Sequence record: PZ171035.1
Direction: 5' to 3' (one strand)
Origin: a phage
DNA length: 64,000 bases
Below the pieces are notes generated by a model. It was not told where the DNA came from. It saw only the letters and a program-made list of their open reading frames with translations, and searched no databases. The position numbers and the translations under genes were made by a program. This document shows, one piece after another, positions 33,327-47,795 of this stretch (positions are counted from its first letter, which is position 1; each line of letters begins with the position of its first letter).

Positions 33327-34095
33327 TCTGGTAGGTGGCTCAGAAGCTGCTGCTATTTGTGGTAGTGTTCGTAATTCTGATGCTATTGCTTATCAGGATT
33401 CTGGACGTGTCGGCTCCATACATAGCATTTATCATCACTGTGCTTATACTTTGGAAACTCAGTGATAAAAACGGTGGTGACAAGCCGCCAGAGTAACAAC
33501 AACAACCGAACCAGTGGACTTTATTACTCCCCGAAGTCCACTGGTTCAATCTAAACTAAGCGGAAAAGTTAGCTTTTTCTTGGGTGTAGAACCTGTTGAA
33601 GGAAACAAAGAATTTCACATTGAATAGTTAATATCGTGAAGGGTTCTGTTAGAATCCTTTGAGATAGGAACTCCTATCATAACTATTCTTAACTTAATCA
33701 TTGCCGTATGGCACTGACGCTAGGGGTGGCCCCCCCATCCGTCAGGTAGACTATTTTAAGAATGGATTATCACAGCAAATGTAAAGCAACATTCGGGTTA
33801 ATCAATGGCCTCTCCCTATAGGGGCCATTTCTGAATCTTAGGCTATATCCCAAAGGTTAGTATCTTTGGGATAAGGCTTCAGATCCCTTATCAACTAACG
33901 CTCGTGTTGAGCATTTTAATCACATAAGCCCCTATATGGGCTGGGTTAAATGTCGGATAGCAAAGCTACCTACAGCATCGAATTGTTAGGTCTTACATGT
34001 AATATAGGGTATAAAGGGAGGACTCGTCCCCTCCCTCCTATTATGACATCCTATCAATGAGTACATTAAGCTAACGTGCGGAGGTTTACACTGTA

Positions 34096-34657
34096 GCCGG
34101 TGTAGGTGGAGAAGACGGCAGGGTAGCTACCTGTGCTTAGTGTACTCTTTGATAGTTTTCGTAAGCGATTATGCGGTTTTTTAGAAACGAACCAATAACA
34201 TAAATGCAAACGATGATGTTGTTCTGATGGCGGCGTAATAGCCTGTAAGTCAGCAAGGTCTTCCGACTCCTTGTAAGCAAATTCGGCGCAGTGGCCCGCT
34301 GTGATTAATAATGGGCACACAACAGGTAAGAGCATTTAGGCTACTGAGAAATCATCCGAGGCAATCAGACCTATCTTCTGTTAAGTGCTCTTTCCGTTGT
34401 GGTGAATGCGCAGGCTGATGCGCAGTGGGACGTGGCTGACTCACGAGGATGGCTCAAGCGAATAAGCAAGCTCGACGCCGCCGAATAAGCGCCTTATGCC
34501 GGAGATCAGCACCGGCCACCACAACAAGTCCAGACGATATCTGAGTGACTATAAAAACAGATGGAGCCAGGTGGAATCCCTGGCAACTAATTCCGGTGTA
34601 GGTACTAGTGTCGTGCACGGCATGAGCATTCTGGTTCGAGTCCAGACGCCGGAACCA
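34096..34657 (+). ncRNA. candidate tmRNA-like RNA (tag-like reading frame at 34206-34241; limits very tentative)
   Basis: GCA AAC GAT GAT GTT GTT CTG ATG GCG GCG TAA TAG = ANDDVVLMAA + two stops, AU-rich upstream, resembles tmRNA resume/tag regions; 3' T-arm-acceptor-ACCA at 34630-34657; no G3-U70 pair found. Confidence 0.3.
34592..34657 (+). tRNA. tRNA-like minihelix element A (acceptor stem + T-arm + A + CCA, truncated body)
   Basis: 5' TCCGGTG pairs with 3' CGCCGGA; T-arm TCTGG-TTCGAGT-CCAGA; encoded ACCA; only 66 nt, no canonical D/anticodon arms. Confidence 0.35.
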
Positions 34658-34659
34658 AT

Positions 34660-34783
34660 TACCAGTTGCACGAGATGGCTTGACATGTTCAAGTTTGGAC
34701 TAAGTGTGACACCGCTAGATTGGAGGGCTGCTGCGGTAAGCTATAGACTCCAACCGGAGGTTCGAATCCTTCACTGGTAACCA
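34660..34783 (+). ncRNA. tRNA-like element B (T-arm + acceptor + ACCA, 124-nt body)
   Basis: 5' TACCAGT pairs with 3' ACTGGTA; T-arm GGAGG-TTCGAAT-CCTTC; encoded ACCA; too long for a canonical tRNA. Confidence 0.3.
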
Positions 34784-35366
34784 ATTCAAAGTAGCACTCG
34801 TTTATACTTCCCGGTATTCAAAGACACATTCTTGTGTGAGTGTTACTCTGAATTGTAAGAATTATGGGGGTAAGTCGTAAATACGACAGCGTAAGTACCA
34901 GATGAAACCTCTGGACGCCCCTACCATATTTGAGATGTAACAGTTAAATCCGTACCCGGAAGTGCTATTCTAGATACGCTGCCAATGTGGAGACGGTAAG
35001 GCTGTACAGGACTCGGACTCCCACCTCAAACCAAAGTCGCCAGATACTTATGGCAAACGGGTAGTAACGAACTAGTCATTCGTCAAACGCCCACCCTATT
35101 ATGAGTCAGCAAGAACGCCTTCACTTAAACTTAAACAAAAAAGCTTAACGCAATAATTATGTAGGGGTATGTAAGGATTGCGAAGAAGGAGCCAGTTAAA
35201 GTCTGGCATGACTCACCTAATTGAGGCTGTACTTATGTTCTACAGTAGGTGCACAACACTGGGCTGCTACACCCAGAGGTACAGCCTCACCCTATTATGG
35301 GTAGCCTATACTAGTTATAGGGCAGATAATCTGTGGCAGTGTAAGGCTGCACTACCCTTTCATTAA

Positions 35367-35442
35367 TACCCGGTAGGCTTAGTGGTAAAGCCCCACTAGT
35401 AAACCAACTAGGACGCAGGTTCGAATCCTGTCCGGGTAGCCA
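35367..35442 (+). tRNA. tRNA-like gene C (76 nt; canonical acceptor, D and T arms; non-canonical anticodon loop)
   Basis: Acceptor TACCCGG/CCGGGTA, D-arm GGCT-TAGTGGTAA-AGCC, T-arm GCAGG-TTCGAAT-CCTGT, G + CCA; anticodon arm folds only as CTAGT/ACTAG with 6-nt loop or CTAG/CTAG with 8-nt loop. Confidence 0.5.
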
Positions 35443-35447
35443 TTTAT

Positions 35448-35532
35448 GCCCACTTAGCTCAGTGGTAGAGCGCAGGAAAGCTTCGAGAGAACAAGGTGTC
35501 TGTGGTCACTGGTTCAAATCCAGTAGTGGGTA
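35448..35532 (+). tRNA. tRNA-like gene D (85 nt; canonical acceptor, D and T arms; anticodon region not foldable by eye)
   Basis: Acceptor GCCCACT/AGTGGGT, D-arm GCTC-AGTGGTA-GAGC, T-arm ACTGG-TTCAAAT-CCAGT; 35-nt segment between D and T arms. Confidence 0.45.
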
Positions 35533-35848
35533 CTTATTTGCTGCAATATTCCCATAGGGAATGGTGTCGTATACGCCACCTAGTTTCTGGTGAAACTCCA
35601 GATGCAGCAATCCATTCAGCAGTAACATAGTCCTGATTGCATTGCACTCTAAAGACAACACTGGTAAGACAGTCCAGTGGCTGCTATTGTATTGATATTC
35701 CCCTCGACGGGAATTTCGCTAGTGAAGGTAACACTTAAAAATCCAAACCCACGTCTTACTGCTATCGGGCTATCAACCCACAGTCGCTTAACACACTAGT
35801 GGTAGTAGTTTGACGACCTAGCCTCGTTAGCTGCGTTAAAGCTACTAA

Positions 35849-35886
35849 GTCCCCTAGAGCCGCCCCTCTAGGGGACTTTTTTATTT
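35849..35886 (+). terminator. strong intrinsic terminator closing the RNA-gene region
   Basis: GTCCCCTAGAG-CCGCCC-CTCTAGGGGAC hairpin followed by TTTTTTATTT. Confidence 0.7.
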
Positions 35887-37377: not shown

Positions 37378-40300
37378 TTAGTTAGTAAGATTGAGCCACG
37401 GGTTCAGGGTATGAGCACGTAAGCCTTGACCGAAACCGAAGGAGTAACCAAGATTGCCCTGTGCAGCAATACTAAAGATGTTGTCCTGAATAGGCAGGCC
37501 AACGTTACCAAACATGGTAGGGGTTGGGGCCAACATAGCCATAGCAGCATGAACTGGGTTATTACGAATCATGGACACTGCAACTTTTGCAGAACGAATC
37601 TTAAAGTTGTAGAACCACATCAGACCAACGCTTTCCATATACCCACGGAAACGACCAGGCAGACGGTCATAGTTAATGAACTCTTCCGTTACACGTCCCA
37701 GTGCTTCTTCGCGAGTCTTACCTTTACGCTGAGTTAGTTCATCATAGATGATTGCTTTAGCAATAAAGTCAGAGTACTCAACCGTCTTCTGGATACTCTG
37801 GAACAAAGCAGTATCCTTAGTGATAAGTGCATAACGACCTGCGTTACGTACAGACTTAGGCAGCTTATCGGCTAGCTTATCCATATATTCGTGAAGTTTA
37901 CCTTCAGTAATCAGAATGTCATCACGCCCAATACCAGCATCTGCAATTGAAGAGAACTCACCAGCTTCCAATAGAGGCCAGATACTCAAACGCTTATGGC
38001 TATCCGTAATGGACTGAATCTCAGCCTTAAGTTTACGAATCTGGTTCGGGTTAGTAGCTGCACGTAATTCTGCTTCTGCATCTACCTGACGCAGGCGAGA
38101 TTTCAGGTACTGGTTAATCTCAGCAGTCTTCTGTGGAATGCTCTTAGCAATGTTCTTAACCGGTACACCACGAGCAACCATCTGGTAAAGGTTAGCCAGG
38201 AAGTTAACAGCAGGTACAACTACTGACTTAACCACAATCAGAGTCTTAGCTTCTTTAACTAAGTTTTGAACCAGGTTCTCTCCACCCATTACATATTTAT
38301 AAGCACGGTTACCGAAGACACCCAACATAGCTTTCTTGAAGGTATCCAGTGTTTCTGGGGACCAACGAGAATTACCAGACCAGGCATCACCAACGGAAGC
38401 TGCACGATAACCTAAGGCATCATTAAGCATGTCACGACGTACCCACAACTCACCTGGACCAAACAGACTTTCTGCTTTCTGACGAGTTTCACTATTCATC
38501 AGCTTAAGTGCATCGGCAGTTACTGGGTCCAGTTTAGAACCAAGAAGGTTAACGTACTGGGACTTATTAGAAGCAGACATCTTAATGTCGTTCTCATACA
38601 TGCTATGCAGGTTCTCAATTAGCATATCGTTGAAACGCTGAGCCTTAGCCTCTTCTACCTGACGACCACGCCATACACCGATTGCACGAGCAAGATGGTT
38701 CTCACCTTCAATGTGCTTCAGCATGTTAGGGTCAATAGATTGCTCGTAAGCAACTACATTACCATTAGCATCATATACAGGCAGCAGAGGTTCATTACCA
38801 CGTTCACCACGAGCAAGTGCTTTAGTGATACGGTCTACAGAAGGCTTGTCAGTGATACGACCCGCTACCATGGTTCCCATCGTAAAGCCTGTACCAAGGT
38901 CTACACCACCAGCAGTATTTCGAACGTTCTGTAAGATACCCTGTGAGAATGGGGCCTGTGCCTGTACTGGTGCGAAGTAGTAGCTACGTGCTGGACCACG
39001 GTTAGCAGAGCTACCTTGATAAGTACCCAGACGTACATAGGACTTCTCAATCAAATCACCAAACTGGCTATCTTCAGCAACAATCAGATTAACACCCTGT
39101 TTAGTCTCACTAGGGATATGCCCTTTGTACTGGTTCAGGGTTGCACGCATATCAGATTTGGCTTTAGCCATTTCATCTTTACGCTGACCAACCAGGTAAG
39201 AGGTGGCAAAGTCCATCCCATCAACTTCTGTCTGAGCCAGTGAAGATAACATCTCACGGTCGGACTTGTTCATTGCTTCCAGTGCATACAGGGTAATCAG
39301 TTTATCCAGTTGAGCTACATCTACAGTAGAGCGTGCAGCCTGACGTTCACCCAGCATACGGGAGATTGCAGTAGCATTACGCAGCAGGTTTTTACCGACA
39401 GTACCATTAATCATGTACTGAGCCAGTTGCTTAGATTTACGGTTAATCAGAGGCCAGTTACGACCAGCTTGTTTCTGCAAATCTGCTTCCAGCTTATTCA
39501 CTTCACGGTCAACAATCTTCTGGTCAGTCAGTAAGTCACGGATTTCAGCCAGTGACATAGTGTCACGCAGGACAGCTAAATCTGTTTTACCCATACCAGT
39601 ATGCATTACTTTCCACTCATCATTAGTCAGCTTACGGCTGAACTTAGATGCGATAGTAGTAGGCAGATGTTCACGGAACTGCTGACGGTCTGCCTGCACC
39701 TGTGCACGTACTGCTTTAATCAAATCGTATACAGAAGCATTGCTCTTAGTACGACCGGTTAAGTCATTAACCAGGTCATGGAAAGGTTGCCATACCTTAC
39801 CCTGGTTCATTGCAGCCATAACACCTTCAGCTACGATTGCACCATTCTTCTCTGTAGCAATAGCAGCTACCAGTTGTGCAGCATGAGCAGCACCTTTAAC
39901 CAATGGATTATTGGTATTGGCTGCAACTTCACGAGCACCTTCCAAAGCACGGGTAGATAGTACATCAATAGAATCCACCAGATACTGGTTAGCACGGTCA
40001 ATAGCATTACCAGTAGGAGTAGCAACGGAATCATAGAAGGATTCTGCATTAAGACTGGTCTGCATAATCGTCTGAGCCAGTGCATCCATACCTTCCTGTA
40101 CGTTAGTAGCTTTAGTATCACCTGCTACACGAGCATTCAGACTAGCCATTGCAGCAGTACCAATGTTAGTCAGCATTGCATCAACGGTATTACCTGATTT
40201 CTTATCTGCTTTCATGACAGGAATGTCAGCCAGTACTTTACGTACTTCTTCACTTACCATTGCCAGACCAACAAAGGTAGGCAGTAAAGAAGATCGACCT

Positions 40301-43300
40301 TGTGCATCAAACTCAATGTTGTTAGCACCCATGATGGTATCGAACTTCTGCTGTGCATAATAACGATCAGCAGGGTTAGTACTATCTGGGTCAGCCATAA
40401 ATGCTTCGACGGTCAGATTCTTAGTAACATGCGTGTAGTATTCCTGTGCACGAGCCATAGCAGCAGGGTTAACAGCAGCCTCGGTAGCCAGTGCAGCAAC
40501 AATATTGGTAAAGAGACGCTGTTCCTGCATATTCATGGTGAAGCCATGAGCCTGAACATCACGAGTTACTTTAGTTGCATTTACTACTGCATCAGAGAAC
40601 TTACCTTTGCGAATTACTTGCTGTACTGGTTCTGAACCAATGTAGTTAGTAATTAGCTTATCAAAGGTTTTCCCTAGCTCTTCCAGACGAGTATTTTCAC
40701 CATACGCTTTGTTATGGAACAGAGTAGTATCTTTGGCTACAGCAGCAGTAGGAGCTTGCCCACGCATTACTACAGCAGAGTTAAACAGTAAGCCAGAGAA
40801 CATATCTTCTGCATTAGCAGGAGCTTTCTTACGTCCAAATACCAGACGTTTGATTGCTTCATATACAGCCTGAACCATAGTTTTAAGTGCAGTGGTTTTC
40901 TTCTGCTTACTAATCAGTTCTCGGTTGGTTAAACCCCAAGCCATGTACTCGTTCAGTGCAGCAGCTTTAGCCATTGCTGGTTCAATAAAGCCATTGGATA
41001 GGTGACCATTAATGGTATTCAGTGCATCAGCATATGCTTCTCGTACTGCCGGAGATTCATCCCTAACATCCAGAGCACGGAACTGATTCATCAGGTCTTC
41101 GATGTTCTGGACTGCTTCATTAGGAGTGCCTTCATAGTGAGCCAGTACAGATTCAAAAGTAGAAGCATGTACCAATTCATGAACCAGAGTCTCTAAGGAA
41201 GGGGTAACTAAGTAGATGGTTTTATCTTCAAAGTTAGTCCAGCCGTATGCATTACCAGCTTCAGCAGCTTCAATATCTTCCGGTGCTGGGCGAGTAATGT
41301 TCTTCTCAATAGCATAGGCATCCAATTGAGCAGGTGTACCGTAAACAACTTTATAGTCTTTAGCAGCAAGGGATTTCTGTATTTCTTTCAATACTTCTTG
41401 CTGTTCAGGAGACATCTCTTTAGCCAGTTTAGTAATGGCAGTGTTAGACAGCAGACGTACACCAGACTTCAGTACACGACCAACCTGTTCCATCGCCGGT
41501 ACTTCTTCCACTGGTTCTGCTTTAGTAGCACGTACTGCTTCACGACGCTTATTTAATTCAGCATCAAACAGTTCGTTCAGCTTAGCTACTTGCTGGTCTA
41601 CAGTAAGACCTTCCAGAGAGATTTTACCGTTGTTCACATAAGGAGCACCTACGGCAGCCATCTGGTCAACAGTGACTTGTACCTGGTCCATTACCTTGTG
41701 ACGAATATCTACACCCAGAGCAATGTTACGCAGGTTACGTTCAATCTGCTCAGCACCGACACGTAACAGGTCATCAGTAGCACCCTCACGTTGGTCATAC
41801 TCCAGAGCAGACTTAGCGATAGCCTGTTTGGTTTCATCAGACAGTTTACTGAAGTCTACGTTCTTCATGAACTTAGCGTAGGAGTCATAAACATTCTTGA
41901 TAGGGTTACCCTGCCAGGAAGTATATACAGCCTCATTAGCTTTGCGACTTGCATCAGTGATGTCATTGATACCAATGTTCATACCATCAAAGATTTTCAG
42001 GGTATTCTTCGGAGCACCTTTCATAGTAGAAAGTGTCTGCATCATCATGCCATCACCAGTACCGATGGTCATAAATGGAATACCTGCAACACCTGCCTGT
42101 GAAGGAGCATAAATGCTCATTGGCACACGCATACGGTCATCTAAGTTAGTAGCCAGTACTTGGTTAGCAACATCAGTATTCTCACTACCAGCAATGTAGA
42201 AAGTCTGTGAACCAGTCTCAATCATTGGAGCCAGTGAAGATAATGATTCCTGGATTTCATTCAGTTCTTTCTGCGTTAAGAAATCACCTTTCTTCCAGGT
42301 TGGGTCTTTTTCTTTTTCTGCCAGCTTAGCCTGTACTGCTTGCTGGAACATATCCTGCAATACCAGAGATTGAATCTGGGTAGCCTTCTGCAAGTTCTCG
42401 GTAGAGTGCATCAGACCTTCACCAACAGTATTACGGATACCAGTACGCATTGGTTCAACGAACAGGTGGAGCATGTTCTCTTGTAAGTTCTTCAGGGCAT
42501 TACCGGATACGGTAAATTTCTGGGGGTCTAACTTACCAGTCAGAGCACCATCTACTTGCTGAATAGACAACTCACCTTTACGCATAACTGGAACATTACC
42601 AGTCAGTGCTTCCATAGAAGTAAGGAAAGTATCCAACATAGCCTGAGCATCAGCTTCAGACGCAGCCTCCTTACCAAACATTGCCATAGCTGGGGAAATG
42701 CTAGGGTCAGCAGCTCGTGCTTGCAGAACGTCACTGAAGCGTTCGTAGATGGTATCAGTAATTGCACTGACCATCTTGCCAGCAATACCACGAGCACCAG
42801 AACCATAGATGGTAATGGTCAGTGGGTTTTTAGCAATACCACGTTTCAGGTCCAGAGTACCGTCTTCATTCAGGTTAAAGTCTTTAATGAACAAGTCCAT
42901 TAACTTCTGGAGATGATTCATCTGGCTCATAACTGGAACGTTGTTACGGTAAGTAGTACGTAACTCATTCAGTGCTTGTTGAAGACCATTGGTAGATGCT
43001 TCATACAAGTCAACATTATCGTCGATAGAACAATGTTCGTTCATCGTTTTACCAGCACGACCAAAGAACAAACCACCTTTGGCAGTGTTCTTAATCCAGT
43101 CTGGAGTGAACTTACCACCAGTCATTAATACCATTGCGTTGATTGGGCCGTTGGTTACACCATCAGCTTCAACGTACAGTGGAGTAGTAAAATTAGCACG
43201 GTCATCACTGTTCAGGTAACGGGCATATTCCATCAGAGCCATGAGAGCTACGAAGGATTTATCACTACCCAGAGAGGTCTTCAGGATGTCTACTGCATCT

Positions 43301-46300
43301 GTCGGTAAGTGACCAGACTTATCAAACTCAACCATCATATCAACAGCAGGTTTCAGTTTACCTTCCAGAGCTTTAGTTAACTCTTCAGACATAACTTCAC
43401 GGGACATTTTATGTACCTTGATGCCTAATGCCTGAGCCAGACCTAACTGGAAGTCAGAGAACGCTTGGCTGTTTTCATTACTCAAGTCGATAGTAGAGAA
43501 GGTTGGTAGGATTGCTTCACGAACCAGCTTACTGGATTGTGGGTTGTTCTTACCAAGCATCTGCATACGACCTACACGGGTCATGTTATAACCGTAGTGG
43601 ATAGGTGTATCCAGACCATTCTCTTGTTCTCGTATCTGATTAATTACACCGAACAGAGAATCATATGCCATAGACACGGACAGGTTTTTACCTTCCAAAG
43701 ATTTAGCAGTGTTCGCGTTCAGTAATTCTGGATTAAGAGTACCAGCACCCATCAGTTCCAGAATGTTGTCACGCCCCAATGCTTCATAGAAGTTAACCAT
43801 TGGCATATGTACACGGAACTCGGTAGCCTGTTCAGCTTTCAGTGCAGCTTTCTGTTCAGGGGTATTCTTAACAGCAGGGTTACGCAACTGAGTCTGAGCC
43901 ACAGAAGGAATGTCATCACCAAAGTACATTTTCTCTTCTGGTTCTAAGAGGACAGCTTCCTCAATAGCAGTAGGGAATTTATTAATGGCATCATTGTCAT
44001 CCAACTTCTCAATGGTATACAGACCAACAGTCTTATTGGAGTCTGGGTCAATCTCAGACACATCCAACATAGACTCTTTAACTTCACCCATCTCAATGAG
44101 AGAAGACAGAATCTCTGTAGCCATTGCCATTGGGATACCTTTGGTATAACCCAGCGGTGCATTAGGATTACGATTCAAACCCCAGTAGGATTCAATCTTC
44201 TGAGCCAGTGAGTTAGTAGCTTCAACCAGGGTCTGGGCATTCTCGAACTCAGCCAGAATACCTTCTGGTAACAGAGATGCTTCTACGCCTGTAATAGCAG
44301 CTACGTCTTTCATATCTTTAATGGCAGCATTCTGTGTAGTAGTCAGTCGCCATTGCAAACCAGCAAGCACAGCAGTCTCTAACAACTGGTCGTTGAACTT
44401 AAAGGTATCCCCATCTTGTTCAACTATATTCAGCAGTTTGCCACCTACCCAACGGTTAGCTTCAGTACCTTCTGCAAAACGTTTACCAACGTTCTTATTA
44501 GCAAGGAACTTAGCCAGACGTTCAGACAAAGTAGTCTTCAGAGTTTCACCAAAGTCCATTAAGTCCTGATAACGCTTAATCACATCACTAGTGAGAGCGT
44601 TATTTTCTTTTTGAGTGAATGCCTCAAAGCGAGCAGCAGAAGACAGTGCTTGCTTAATATCAGTCAAAGGAGATTCTGAACCAATGGTACGGGACTTAGG
44701 TTCTTCCGGTAAGGTAAATGCTTTCAGGAACTGGTTCGGTGTCTTTTCATTGTTATAGACAGGGAACACTGTTTCCATTTCTGTTTTGGTTTCAGCTACT
44801 TCCTGGATGGTATCCTCATTCTTGAGAATAGCATCTACTGTTTCAGGCTTAGTAGTAGAGACTTCTTCTGTTTTTGGACTAGTCTCCTTAGTAGGAGCAG
44901 TCTTATTTTCTACCACAGGTTTAGCTTTAGGCTGTACAGTAGTAGTGTCCTCTTGCACTGGTGCAGGAGATTCATCAACCTGATTCACTGGTTCATTAGT
45001 CTGTTGAGACTGAGTGGCATCAAGACCACCTTGACGGAACTCTTTAACTACCTGGGCAGCAGGCTTGTTCAGACGTGAATCCAACGAGGTAACTTTCACA
45101 TGAGAAACATTAAGCTCCGGGTAAGCCGTAGCAAGTGCATTAGCAATATCAGCTACGGTTTTGGCTTCCAGTCCTACTTGCTGGGCAAACTTAACAGACT
45201 TGGTATCGTAAGGATTGACACCGAGGCCAGTACGACTACGTACCCATTCACGGGAAGGCGAGAGAGCCTGATAATGAACAGACTTATTCTTATCCGCATT
45301 CCCCGAAATCAGATGCTCATTCAACGCTCCGACCTTATTCTGCATGTGCTGGGCGAACTTCATAAAGTCGCTCAGATAAGCGGAGGCCAAATCGAAGTTA
45401 CCAGAGTTATACGCAGAACGAATGCGTTTCGCATGTTGCAACGCAGAGTACTGTCCTTCATTAGAACGAGACTCGTCGGTTTTAATCTGTTTACTAACAA
45501 TGTCTTGAGGACGTAAGCCTAGTTCTTCTGCTTTAGCGTCGAACTCACGTGCACCCTGTAACAAGGCAGCAGCAGATTGCAGGGCAGCACGTTGACGATT
45601 ACCCAATGTAATCTTACCTTCACTTGCATGTTTCAGAACCATGTTCACTGAATCCGCATCCAGTACTTCTGGAGATACATCAGCAGCCATAGCAATATTG
45701 TTTGCTTGGGCTTGGTTAGCTTCTTCAGTAGCTTTCAGCTTACCTGCTTCAGCCTGTTCCTGAATCATGGAATGGATAGCACGGAATGCACGAAGTACTT
45801 TCGGGGTATTCTGTACGTTAGCCATCAGGCCGGAGAATTGGTCTACGATTGCAGCAGCAGGAGAACCCTGTTCAAGATTAGCCAGAGCACCTGGGTCACG
45901 GTTAATGAAGCTATCCATAGACATGATGTTGTCATACATCTGGATTGCAGCTTCCATTTGAACGTTAGGGTCTTCGGCAGTATTAACCAGGTCAGCCATC
46001 TTCTGAATAGCTTCAACACGGTTAGTGGAACCAGAAACAGCTTCACGGATTGCCGGGTTAGCTTGTTCCAATTCTACCGGGTCAAACTTCATTGCCTGAG
46101 TTAAGTCAGCAGCATACTGGGTAGCAGCAGCTTTCTCTTCTGGAGTGATGTCCATTGCATCCACTGCTTCTTGTACAGTTGCCTGTGCTTGTTCTGCCTG
46201 AGCAGCAGCTTCCTGTGCAGCAGCATTAACCGTAGCATCAGCTACAGGGGATGCTTGTTCATTACGCTTAGCAACTTCTTCACCACGTTGAATCAGGATG

Positions 46301-47730
46301 TTAGTAAGAGGGGATGCAGCTTTTGCTAATGTTTTGCCAACCAGAGAAGCACCAGCCATGGTAGTACGAAGAGCAGGGCCAGCAGAAGCACCAACTGCTT
46401 TAACAGTTGTACCAGGAGCTTGAGCAACCCCAGCACTACCGAATCCATAAAGTGCACCCAGACCTGCTTGCTCACCAACCCCTTTGAGGGTGTCACGGGA
46501 TGCATCAACGTTTTCTTTGATTGCAGTATTCTGTGCGAACTGACCAAAGCCGGATTGAATACCTTCTTCGACTGTTTCACGTAGCATATTAGAACCAGCA
46601 CCTGCCAGTGAACCTACCTTAAGTGGGTTAAGTTCAAAGCGAGATACCAGTGGACCGGTAGCAGCAGCAACTGGAGCAGTTAAGCCAGCAGCAATGATAC
46701 CTGTTTCAGATGCAGTCTGACGACGTGCTTCATCAGGAGATAAACCATCAGCAATATGTTGTTGGTAAACAGGAGACTTACTTGCCAATTCTTGATGGGA
46801 CATCTTCATGATTTCAGAAGCAGTCTGTTGGTATGCACCACCAGCTTCCATACCACCGATTGCAATAGCAGGTGCAGCAACACGACCGGCAGACAATGCA
46901 ACCTGTGCAGGACGTGAACCTAACCCAGCAGCTAAGGTAATACCCTTAACAGCTTTATCACCACCTACCATTACTTTACCAAGTGCAGATACACCACGAA
47001 TAAGAGGACCACCAGTAAAGAGAGAACCAACACCTTCACTCAGTCCGTCAGAGGCAGCCATACCATTATCAAGTGTGTTAGCAACAGAATCGAAAGCGTC
47101 ACGACCAATACGAGACAGGGAGGCAACCAAATCGCTGTCCCCATTTTTGATATCTTGTTCATAAAGTTTCTGGTTCTTTTGAGCAGAAATCTGGTTCTGA
47201 TTCTGAACAACTTTACGGGTAGCATTCAGTGCATCAGACTGTAGATTGTGTACACCTTCATTCAACCAATCCATCCCGGAAGCAATGGATGCCCCGGCAT
47301 TATCATTGACCAGACCTGTGCCAAGAGCAGCAATGCCCCCAAGGGTATTAGCAACACCAAGACCAACACCAGAAAGAGTATCGCCAAATGCTTCTGCGTT
47401 AGTACGCTGTTTAGATAAGTCCTGACGTACAACATCAGCAGCATTAGCTCGGCTATTAATAATCTGTAGACCTTGTTCATTACCGTACTTATTAATGATT
47501 TCTAAAGGGGAGGCTTGAGTGAAATCTGCCTGAAGTGAACCTGGTTCGAATGCACCGATTCCAAGATTACCTACTCGTCCGGTCTGGAGATTGTAAGCAT
47601 TCTCTGGGGTTAATTGGAAAGGGCTTTGCCCTTGTGCAGCTTGCTTCTGAGAGGTTGCAGTAGAGACATCGACTTGCTTAGCATTAGTGATGCTGTCTGC
47701 GAAACCTGCCAGACGGTCAAATGTTGACAT
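37378..47730 (-). CDS. virion-encapsidated giant RNA polymerase (vRNAP, N4 gp50-like)
   Basis: Single uninterrupted 3450-aa ORF; only N4-like phages are known to encode a virion RNAP of this size; ORF track start at 47748 is TTG, first ATG at 47730 has AGGAAA RBS. Confidence 0.85.
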   Translation of the reverse strand: MSTFDRLAGFADSITNAKQVDVSTATSQKQAAQGQSPFQLTPENAYNLQTGRVGNLGIGAFEPGSLQADFTQASPLEIINKYGNEQGLQIINSRANAADVVRQDLSKQRTNAEAFGDTLSGVGLGVANTLGGIAALGTGLVNDNAGASIASGMDWLNEGVHNLQSDALNATRKVVQNQNQISAQKNQKLYEQDIKNGDSDLVASLSRIGRDAFDSVANTLDNGMAASDGLSEGVGSLFTGGPLIRGVSALGKVMVGGDKAVKGITLAAGLGSRPAQVALSAGRVAAPAIAIGGMEAGGAYQQTASEIMKMSHQELASKSPVYQQHIADGLSPDEARRQTASETGIIAAGLTAPVAAATGPLVSRFELNPLKVGSLAGAGSNMLRETVEEGIQSGFGQFAQNTAIKENVDASRDTLKGVGEQAGLGALYGFGSAGVAQAPGTTVKAVGASAGPALRTTMAGASLVGKTLAKAASPLTNILIQRGEEVAKRNEQASPVADATVNAAAQEAAAQAEQAQATVQEAVDAMDITPEEKAAATQYAADLTQAMKFDPVELEQANPAIREAVSGSTNRVEAIQKMADLVNTAEDPNVQMEAAIQMYDNIMSMDSFINRDPGALANLEQGSPAAAIVDQFSGLMANVQNTPKVLRAFRAIHSMIQEQAEAGKLKATEEANQAQANNIAMAADVSPEVLDADSVNMVLKHASEGKITLGNRQRAALQSAAALLQGAREFDAKAEELGLRPQDIVSKQIKTDESRSNEGQYSALQHAKRIRSAYNSGNFDLASAYLSDFMKFAQHMQNKVGALNEHLISGNADKNKSVHYQALSPSREWVRSRTGLGVNPYDTKSVKFAQQVGLEAKTVADIANALATAYPELNVSHVKVTSLDSRLNKPAAQVVKEFRQGGLDATQSQQTNEPVNQVDESPAPVQEDTTTVQPKAKPVVENKTAPTKETSPKTEEVSTTKPETVDAILKNEDTIQEVAETKTEMETVFPVYNNEKTPNQFLKAFTLPEEPKSRTIGSESPLTDIKQALSSAARFEAFTQKENNALTSDVIKRYQDLMDFGETLKTTLSERLAKFLANKNVGKRFAEGTEANRWVGGKLLNIVEQDGDTFKFNDQLLETAVLAGLQWRLTTTQNAAIKDMKDVAAITGVEASLLPEGILAEFENAQTLVEATNSLAQKIESYWGLNRNPNAPLGYTKGIPMAMATEILSSLIEMGEVKESMLDVSEIDPDSNKTVGLYTIEKLDDNDAINKFPTAIEEAVLLEPEEKMYFGDDIPSVAQTQLRNPAVKNTPEQKAALKAEQATEFRVHMPMVNFYEALGRDNILELMGAGTLNPELLNANTAKSLEGKNLSVSMAYDSLFGVINQIREQENGLDTPIHYGYNMTRVGRMQMLGKNNPQSSKLVREAILPTFSTIDLSNENSQAFSDFQLGLAQALGIKVHKMSREVMSEELTKALEGKLKPAVDMMVEFDKSGHLPTDAVDILKTSLGSDKSFVALMALMEYARYLNSDDRANFTTPLYVEADGVTNGPINAMVLMTGGKFTPDWIKNTAKGGLFFGRAGKTMNEHCSIDDNVDLYEASTNGLQQALNELRTTYRNNVPVMSQMNHLQKLMDLFIKDFNLNEDGTLDLKRGIAKNPLTITIYGSGARGIAGKMVSAITDTIYERFSDVLQARAADPSISPAMAMFGKEAASEADAQAMLDTFLTSMEALTGNVPVMRKGELSIQQVDGALTGKLDPQKFTVSGNALKNLQENMLHLFVEPMRTGIRNTVGEGLMHSTENLQKATQIQSLVLQDMFQQAVQAKLAEKEKDPTWKKGDFLTQKELNEIQESLSSLAPMIETGSQTFYIAGSENTDVANQVLATNLDDRMRVPMSIYAPSQAGVAGIPFMTIGTGDGMMMQTLSTMKGAPKNTLKIFDGMNIGINDITDASRKANEAVYTSWQGNPIKNVYDSYAKFMKNVDFSKLSDETKQAIAKSALEYDQREGATDDLLRVGAEQIERNLRNIALGVDIRHKVMDQVQVTVDQMAAVGAPYVNNGKISLEGLTVDQQVAKLNELFDAELNKRREAVRATKAEPVEEVPAMEQVGRVLKSGVRLLSNTAITKLAKEMSPEQQEVLKEIQKSLAAKDYKVVYGTPAQLDAYAIEKNITRPAPEDIEAAEAGNAYGWTNFEDKTIYLVTPSLETLVHELVHASTFESVLAHYEGTPNEAVQNIEDLMNQFRALDVRDESPAVREAYADALNTINGHLSNGFIEPAMAKAAALNEYMAWGLTNRELISKQKKTTALKTMVQAVYEAIKRLVFGRKKAPANAEDMFSGLLFNSAVVMRGQAPTAAVAKDTTLFHNKAYGENTRLEELGKTFDKLITNYIGSEPVQQVIRKGKFSDAVVNATKVTRDVQAHGFTMNMQEQRLFTNIVAALATEAAVNPAAMARAQEYYTHVTKNLTVEAFMADPDSTNPADRYYAQQKFDTIMGANNIEFDAQGRSSLLPTFVGLAMVSEEVRKVLADIPVMKADKKSGNTVDAMLTNIGTAAMASLNARVAGDTKATNVQEGMDALAQTIMQTSLNAESFYDSVATPTGNAIDRANQYLVDSIDVLSTRALEGAREVAANTNNPLVKGAAHAAQLVAAIATEKNGAIVAEGVMAAMNQGKVWQPFHDLVNDLTGRTKSNASVYDLIKAVRAQVQADRQQFREHLPTTIASKFSRKLTNDEWKVMHTGMGKTDLAVLRDTMSLAEIRDLLTDQKIVDREVNKLEADLQKQAGRNWPLINRKSKQLAQYMINGTVGKNLLRNATAISRMLGERQAARSTVDVAQLDKLITLYALEAMNKSDREMLSSLAQTEVDGMDFATSYLVGQRKDEMAKAKSDMRATLNQYKGHIPSETKQGVNLIVAEDSQFGDLIEKSYVRLGTYQGSSANRGPARSYYFAPVQAQAPFSQGILQNVRNTAGGVDLGTGFTMGTMVAGRITDKPSVDRITKALARGERGNEPLLPVYDANGNVVAYEQSIDPNMLKHIEGENHLARAIGVWRGRQVEEAKAQRFNDMLIENLHSMYENDIKMSASNKSQYVNLLGSKLDPVTADALKLMNSETRQKAESLFGPGELWVRRDMLNDALGYRAASVGDAWSGNSRWSPETLDTFKKAMLGVFGNRAYKYVMGGENLVQNLVKEAKTLIVVKSVVVPAVNFLANLYQMVARGVPVKNIAKSIPQKTAEINQYLKSRLRQVDAEAELRAATNPNQIRKLKAEIQSITDSHKRLSIWPLLEAGEFSSIADAGIGRDDILITEGKLHEYMDKLADKLPKSVRNAGRYALITKDTALFQSIQKTVEYSDFIAKAIIYDELTQRKGKTREEALGRVTEEFINYDRLPGRFRGYMESVGLMWFYNFKIRSAKVAVSMIRNNPVHAAMAMLAPTPTMFGNVGLPIQDNIFSIAAQGNLGYSFGFGQGLRAHTLNPWLNLTN

Positions 47731-47795
47731 AGCATGTTTCCTGTTCAAACTTATATCGTATATAGGTAACTTACTCTACAGTAAGCCAGTTAAAG

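Follow-up and report, generated by a model that had tools for sequence, protein, structure and literature searches.

Elements A and B, two adjacent and tRNA-shaped stretches of a phage genome, probably represent separate, tRNA-derived and non-decoding small RNA genes in the tRNA array of an N4-like phage, processed by the host and using the tRNA frame as a scaffold, a reading to which we assign a probability of about 0.6.

The DNA analysed is a stretch of 64,000 nt (sequence record PZ171035.1, hereafter the window) from a Gamaleyavirus, an N4-like coliphage of the G7C/Bp4-like group (family Schitoviridae), whose minus-strand ORF at 37378-47748 (3,456 aa) corresponds to the virion RNA polymerase typical of N4-like phages. 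The 2.6 kb around A and B display 86-92% identity to Escherichia Gamaleyavirus phages. No credible ORF is found between about 33500 and 36040, and both elements lie inside a 2.3-kb non-coding array on the + strand, which, given the strong + strand terminator at its end, reads as one long non-coding transcription unit. The features of the array referred to below are the following:

34089-34102, + strand: local hairpin CACUG-UAGC-CGGUG, outside A, taking in 34097-34102, the initial six bases of a duplicated 11-mer in its upstream copy
34151-34526, + strand: tag RNA module, mobile and structured, with a tmRNA-type tag frame (GCA..UAA); neighbour upstream of A
34206-34238: tag frame, ANDDVVLMAA*
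34527-34591, + strand: leader of A, 65 nt, which travels with A except in cp20
34592-34657, + strand: element A, 66 nt, a tRNA derivative without a D arm
34660-34783, + strand: element B, 124 nt, tRNA-shaped
34866-34926: module E, tRNA-shaped, kept in several Gamaleyaviruses
35367-35442, + strand: module C, tRNA-like, with a 6-nt anticodon loop (AAACCA) and a GCCA end
35448-35532, + strand: module D, from the tRNA-Ile(AAU) of relatives, anticodon domain replaced, 11 nt longer, without encoded CCA
35538-35614: module F, tRNA-shaped, rare
35847-35878, + strand: strong intrinsic terminator, a 13-bp stem followed by a T run, closing the array

When the 64 kb were scanned on both strands for a 5-bp stem enclosing a TTCRANN loop, nine sites were obtained, four of them clustered at 34635-35513 on the + strand; upon adding a fully paired acceptor stem (7/7) and NCCA, a canonical T loop was found only in A, B and module C. 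The window contains no canonical tRNA. Module C is labelled 'tRNA-???' by ARAGORN and scores 39 bits against the Rfam tRNA model, and module D scores 54 bits with a 24-nt insert. Alignment of module D to the tRNA-Ile genes of relatives places GCAGGAAAGCUUCGAGAGAACAAGGUGUCUG where the anticodon domain had been, and a near-copy of this segment is also carried by a lambdoid prophage (L195, around position 2800), within the 3' domain of its tag RNA. In modules E and F a CCAGA/UCUGG stem carries a T-like loop (UGAAACC and UGAAACU), one nucleotide separates this arm from the 3' strand of the acceptor, and the end is NCCA; a hairpin loop in the leader of A, UGGAAUC, resembles these loops. The 9-mer CCTATTATG is present in three copies within 1.3 kb of the array (34040-34048, 35095-35103 and 35291-35299), each coming after a C-rich run, and may be a promoter or processing motif.

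Element A is built of the following parts:

34592-34598 (TCCGGTG) with 34647-34653 (CGCCGGA): acceptor stem, 7 pairs, one of them U.G
34599-34607: linker, UA-GGUACUA, 9 nt
34608-34612 with 34619-34623: central stem, 5 bp, closing the loop GUGCAC at 34613-34618
between central stem and T arm: variable region, 6 nt here and 6-7 nt among variants
34630-34634 (TCTGG) with 34642-34646 (CCAGA): T arm, loop TTCGAGT at 34635-34641
34654: discriminator A (A73), followed by CCA at 34655-34657

The acceptor stem, T arm, discriminator A and encoded CCA described in the original prediction are all confirmed from the sequence. The prediction had also counted 31 nt (34599-34629) in the place of the D and anticodon arms, and this length is right, but the arms are not merely missing: the segment consists of a covarying 5-bp hairpin with an invariant loop and a D-loop remnant. 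The ten distinct variants of A (from the GenBank entries of N4, SPSP, KKP 3715, KP8, VLCpiP4a and cp20 and from IMG/VR contigs) and the seven of B cover a small sampled divergence, mostly >88% identity, and across those of A 99.4% of the cells form standard pairs, compared with just 23-46% when the structure is slid by 1-3 columns as a control. Changes on both sides of a pair are seen in 6 of 17 pairs, of which four belong to the five-pair central stem and two to the T stem, and the central loop, the linker and the T loop display no change at all across variants, the loop reading GUGCAC (6 nt) in the window, N4 and most variants and GUGCACA (7 nt) in KP8, VLCpiP4a and cp20. Further copies of A were found in a later metagenome scan. 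The minimum-free-energy (MFE) fold of A forms no T arm, and the proposed fold lies 3-5 kcal/mol above it; native tRNA folds usually lie above the thermodynamic minimum, and the T-stem covariation favours the proposed fold over the MFE one.

With regard to its descent, an alignment of A with the tRNA-Asn of E. coli, whose sequence was verified against 5,425 genomes beforehand, displays a deletion of 8 nt that removes the D stem on its 5' side and some of the D loop, with GGUA kept. Judged from this alignment, A is a tRNA that has lost 8 nt of its D arm. The GGUA retained includes two D-loop G residues, the ones that contact the T loop in ordinary tRNAs.

Element B is organized as follows:

34660-34666 (TACCAGT) with 34773-34779 (ACTGGTA): acceptor stem, 7 bp
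interior: D-region domain of about 40 nt and a 6-bp 'anticodon' stem with a 22-nt structured loop
34756-34772: T arm, GGAGG/TTCGAAT/CCTTC
34780: discriminator A, followed by CCA at 34781-34783

Likewise, the acceptor pairing, T arm, ACCA end and 124-nt span that had been predicted for B hold in the sequence. Across its seven variants 99.6% of the cells are paired, with far lower values in the slid controls, and compensatory changes affect acceptor pairs 3, 4 and 5, pair 3 of the T stem and a hairpin of the D-region domain. The interior of about 90 nt is otherwise invariant, and since its sequence never varies the inner helices are neither supported nor contradicted.

The original prediction had made its case dependent on conservation in related phages, and both A and B are indeed conserved there, with folds backed by compensatory changes, which points to real conservation and real selection at the RNA level. 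Members are found in four genera. The two elements are independent cassettes, as seen from the occurrence of A alone in N4, its close relatives and several Klebsiella phages, of B alone in ST4, Mimir124, PhAPEC7 and E20, and of the reversed order, B then A, in the Klebsiella phage KP8; EC1-UPM holds both. The A of cp20 fills an ordinary gene position, with tRNA-Tyr and tRNA-Ser on either side at distances of 6 nt, and in N4 and SPSP it is placed between tRNA-Thr and tRNA-Pro. Pattern scans of IMG/VR, of JGI metagenomes and of one genome per GTDB species found A solely on N4-like phage contigs; in these scans bacterial genomes gave no A, the other matches being chance hits or ordinary tRNAs, and blastn of A and B against 5,426 E. 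coli genomes returned no match. Two arrangements were noticed by eye in relatives: in N4 (L009, 1605-1715) a T-arm module of Y-RNA-like plan directly follows A, its acceptor-like stem extending into an 11-bp outer stem, and KP8 (L010, 1935-2050) carries a unit with two T arms inside a single acceptor-like stem.

The leader that precedes A is predicted to form two hairpins, AGUCCAGA..UCUG..GACU and GCCAGG-UGGAAUC-CCUGGC, and its fold is independent of A. Among 17 leader+A variants, taken from phage N4 and from Gamaleyavirus and Kaypoctavirus, the leader is nearly invariant, the few changes being located in predicted loops or linkers, and position -1 is U before every variant of A, as it is before B. 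Leader and A together are 94.8% identical between the window and N4, compared with 70-85% for the flanking genes, and constitute the best-conserved segment between the two phages, an identity that could reflect recent lateral transfer instead of purifying selection. A role of the leader as a sigma-70 promoter was considered and rejected, a consensus scan finding no such promoter there.

What A and B both keep is the 12-bp stack of acceptor and T stems, a canonical T loop, U at -1, A73 and the encoded CCA; in all variants the features of a minimal RNase P substrate (12-bp stack, T loop, U at -1 and 3' RCCA) are present. The stems of this scaffold vary with compensation in both elements, and the loops and the body are invariant. 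The kept half is the one by which the maturation enzymes of the host recognise a tRNA, and the decoding half has been rebuilt, in A through deletion of the 5' D stem and the GUGCAC(A) hairpin, and in B through enlarged and invariant D and anticodon regions. Because the maturation half is kept and the decoding half is rebuilt and invariant, the tRNA frame may act as a scaffold giving stability, the invariant body being the putative working part. On the basis of substrate recognition by RNase P and 3' trimming in E. coli, we infer that a long non-coding transcript would undergo RNase P cleavage at 34592 and 34660 and that the 2-nt spacer between A and B would be trimmed back to CCA, releasing stable RNAs of 66 and 124 nt and setting the ends of the neighbouring RNAs as well. 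When antisense targets of leader+A and of B were sought within the window, the longest matches spanned 12-13 nt, which is the chance level. Should a target of the processed RNAs exist, the interplay of N4-like phages with their host would gain a further layer at the RNA level.

A different and rather unlikely possibility is that A and its leader act as an active tRNA mimic with an exposed palindromic loop, rather than as the by-product of a scaffold, either forming kissing dimers or titrating a host factor, such as a tRNA-directed defence nuclease or tRNA-modifying toxin, that reads the elbow or the acceptor end of tRNAs. Being self-complementary, the GUGCAC loop could form a 6-bp duplex calculated at -7.9 kcal/mol, and A may thus form kissing dimers. 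If true, phages from N4 to the N4-like phages of Klebsiella would share a counter-host RNA of a new class.

We also regard it as rather doubtful that A and B are mere punctuation, namely RNase P or tRNA-like processing signals that free the flanking RNAs and leave functionless excised pieces. Both elements are found directly 3' of a long structured RNA, composed of the tag RNA and the leader, their sequences show every feature of a minimal RNase P substrate, and many such modules occur in the array, all of which would suit a set of cleavage signals. Nevertheless, mere cleavage signals would not require the hairpin loop of A to stay invariant while its stem covaries freely, or the 90-nt body of B to be invariant, and the A of cp20 sits between ordinary tRNAs that require no extra signal.

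An origin of A and B as decaying, functionless tRNA pseudogenes seems improbable. Modules C, D, E and F do appear degenerate, the gene content of the array is mosaic among close relatives, and published genome papers treat these phages as free of tRNAs or as carrying undetermined ones, no tRNA genes being reported for EC1-UPM and two undetermined tRNAs for KP8. However, decay is at odds with the compensatory changes that hold the helices paired (99.4% for A, 99.6% for B), with the invariance of the loops, with leader+A being the segment best conserved relative to N4, and with members in four genera.

Neither element belongs to the family of ordinary tRNAs. In terms of the Rfam tRNA family (RF00005), A and B display the 7-bp acceptor stem, the discriminator, the 5-bp T stem and the UUCRANY loop, but the D arm of 3-4 bp with its loop is replaced by a 9-nt linker in A and a domain of about 40 nt in B. 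In the place of a 7-nt anticodon loop with U33 and a purine at 37, A bears a loop of 6 nt, or of 7 nt with G32 and C37, and B one of 22 nt. In the Rfam search of the 206 nt at E<=10, A had no match and B merely a local match to the T arm of 12.1 bits (gathering score of RF00005, 29 bits); with both the gathering threshold and E<=10, over 4.5 kb and over the 206 nt, no family accounts for A or B. ARAGORN called neither of them a tRNA or tmRNA, module C being its sole call. A covariance model built from the variants of A (R1) gives 84-97 bits to members and <=26 bits to true tRNAs. A Y RNA-like identity of the YrlA type was rejected, as the acceptor stems stop at ACCA and are not continued into a long Ro-binding stem, and RF02553 has no match over A or B.

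It is highly improbable that A is a working D-armless tRNA with the anticodon GCA (Cys), an idea that arises from the 7-nt loop G-U-G-C-A-C-A of KP8, VLCpiP4a and cp20, which places U33 and GCA at 34-36. In most variants, among them those of the window and N4, the loop is just 6 nt long, G and C occupy positions 32 and 37, where a tRNA has a pyrimidine and a purine, and the discriminator is A, against the U73 that the CysRS of E. coli requires; furthermore, A lacks a D arm and is missed by both Rfam tRNA and ARAGORN.

The proposal that A, with or without the upstream 11-mer as its long-range 5' strand, supplies the tRNA-like domain of a tmRNA with the tag frame at 34206-34238 as its message is virtually untenable, and with it falls the suggestion in the original prediction that these units are the tRNA-like domain of a larger tmRNA-like RNA. 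The proposal owes its appeal to a tag frame about 390 nt upstream of A, to a weak tmRNA_permuted match, to the D-loop analogue without a D stem that A has in common with a tmRNA, and to the MFE fold of 34090-34660, in which the copy at 34097 pairs with the 3' strand of A (z = -1.0). It fails on four grounds, namely A without tag, tag without A, the absence of G3:U70, and an upstream 11-mer that close relatives lack and that pairs locally. Position 3-70 is C3-G70 in A, and in B C3-G70 or, in some relatives, U3-A70. A is found without the tag in N4, SPSP and cp20, and the tag without A in unrelated siphoviruses, Ackermannviridae, Ounavirinae, the N4-like Pollock, lambdoid prophages and P1-like plasmids (among them HC6, BUCT610, T765 and Silverhawkium), the tag RNA of HC6 and Silverhawkium starting at its own sigma-70 promoter with no upstream acceptor strand. 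The acceptor stem of A closes locally and is not formed by two RNA ends flanking the tag frame, a D-loop analogue without D stem beside a T arm is present in A only and is a resemblance insufficient for membership, and ARAGORN reports no tmRNA. Accordingly, a one-piece tmRNA at 34096-34657 was rejected, as G3:U70 is absent, the upstream strand is not conserved, and tag and A are uncoupled.

The 11-mer CCGGTGTAGGT is in fact duplicated as predicted, at 34097-34107 and 34593-34603, and its upstream copy is the sole candidate for a long-range 5' acceptor strand of A. The weight given to this duplication does not hold, as such repeats are common in the window at this spacing and the pair is at the chance level: 41 direct 11-mer pairs lie within 600 nt of each other, at 32 distinct offsets, with about 11 obtained in shuffles. 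Almost none of the relatives that keep A have the upstream copy, and PBM-3, nithesis and KKP 3715 are among those lacking it. In ECBP1 the hairpin CACUG-UAGC-CGGUG becomes CACUA-UAGC-UGGUG, a compensatory G-C to A-U change with a partner base five positions upstream, and on account of this local partner the upstream 11-mer belongs to the hairpin at 34089-34102. In N4-like phages a long stem, CUAUCAAUGAGUACA / UGUACUCUUUGAUAG (34055-34150), precedes the tag RNA; its apex, which contains the upstream 11-mer, is mosaic and wholly different among close relatives.

The tag RNA itself matches Rfam tmRNA_permuted with 31 bits, below the gathering score of 47, and is found in 1401 of the 5426 E. coli genomes and in unrelated phages. 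In E. coli it occupies lambdoid prophages, between Q and the holin gene, and P1-like plasmids, beside tRNA-Asn; its phage hosts include N4-like, T1-like-sized, Vi1-like and FelixO1-like phages. It is unannotated and carries no tRNA-like domain bearing G3:U70. The tags vary by conservative replacement (ANDDVVLMAA, ANEEAYLMVA, ANEEMYLAVA, ANDNTFLAVA, ANDNVFLAVA and ANDDLMMVAA), and a pseudoknot following the tag covaries (CCGA/UCGG versus CCAA/UUGG). Further downstream, 34318-34415 holds a recurrent hairpin, in which CACAACAGGUAAGAGCA and UGCUCUUUCCGUUGUG enclose a variable part, followed by GUGAAUGCGCAGGCUGAUGCGC, and 34416-34526 a tRNA-like multi-branch structure closed by UGUGGUG/CACCACA, with a 9-nt-loop hairpin GCCGG-AGAUCAGCA-CCGGC. 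Pseudomonas, Klebsiella and Escherichia phages carry separate pieces of 34318-34526, and BUCT610 has such pieces in repeated copies.

Among known systems, the species 1 RNA of T4 may be regarded, by analogy of layout, as the closest analogue of A and B. Species 1 (rnaC) and species 2 (rnaD) are stable RNAs encoded in a phage tRNA cluster on the same strand, as A and B are, and rnaC, with 139 nt, has a canonical T arm (CCGGG-UUCGAAU-CCCGG) beside its terminal stem and an enlarged body, like B; the same plan of a phage tRNA array, one strand, a T arm beside the terminal stem and a non-tRNA body is found here. Homology of A to rnaC or rnaD was not detected, as model R1 matches only the T arm of rnaC (11.8 bits). 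Moreover, A is much smaller than the T4 RNAs and has no T4 counterpart, and both A and B end in an encoded ACCA. The species 1 and species 2 RNAs are not known to have been assigned a function.

The tRNA-like domain of tmRNA has in common with A the acceptor stem, the T arm, a D-loop analogue without a D stem, a size of about 65 nt and the existence of phage-encoded forms, but A lacks G3:U70 and hence alanine identity, is unlinked to the tag RNA, closes its acceptor locally and is missed by tmRNA models. The mascRNA of MALAT1 is, like A, a tRNA-like unit without a working anticodon located 3' of a longer RNA, and RNase P would define both; yet mascRNA is eukaryotic, whereas in the phage module the loop at the anticodon position does not vary, and A can also lie between ordinary tRNAs. 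In D-armless mitochondrial tRNAs, such as metazoan tRNA-Ser(AGY), the D arm is reduced to a short linker and the acceptor stem, anticodon-type hairpin and T arm are kept, as in A, but these tRNAs decode with a 7-nt anticodon loop and A has a mostly 6-nt loop with non-canonical positions 32/37. As for B, it resembles a natural version of the engineered tRNA scaffold of Ponchon and Dardel, in which a foreign RNA placed in the anticodon region is reportedly processed correctly and stable in E. coli, although the engineered molecule keeps a normal D arm. A also resembles mini-tmRNAs that lack a CDS, one of which is mentioned in PMC11915505 as reported for mycobacteriophage DS6A.

Taken as non-decoding tRNA-derived genes, A and B belong with the poorly understood tRNA-like stable RNAs of phage tRNA clusters, and illustrate how such arrays serve as a source of new structured RNAs in which the maturation half is kept and the decoding half rebuilt. 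In the literature on N4/G7C tRNA-like RNAs and on phage tmRNA-like RNAs, as far as it could be searched, neither element is described. Although N4 is a classic model phage, the conserved RNA between its tRNA-Thr and tRNA-Pro is unannotated in its record, and the records of relatives list A as 'tRNA-Undet' or 'tRNA-OTHER'. Because E. coli K-12 is a host of N4, the elements are readily accessible to genetic tests. From the standpoint of annotation, standard tRNA and tmRNA finders miss A and B, and gene callers lay spurious small ORFs across them. The GenBank record of phage nithesis (L002, 1711-3262) displays eight small 'hypothetical protein' CDSs on both strands over the homologous array, and these are probably spurious calls.
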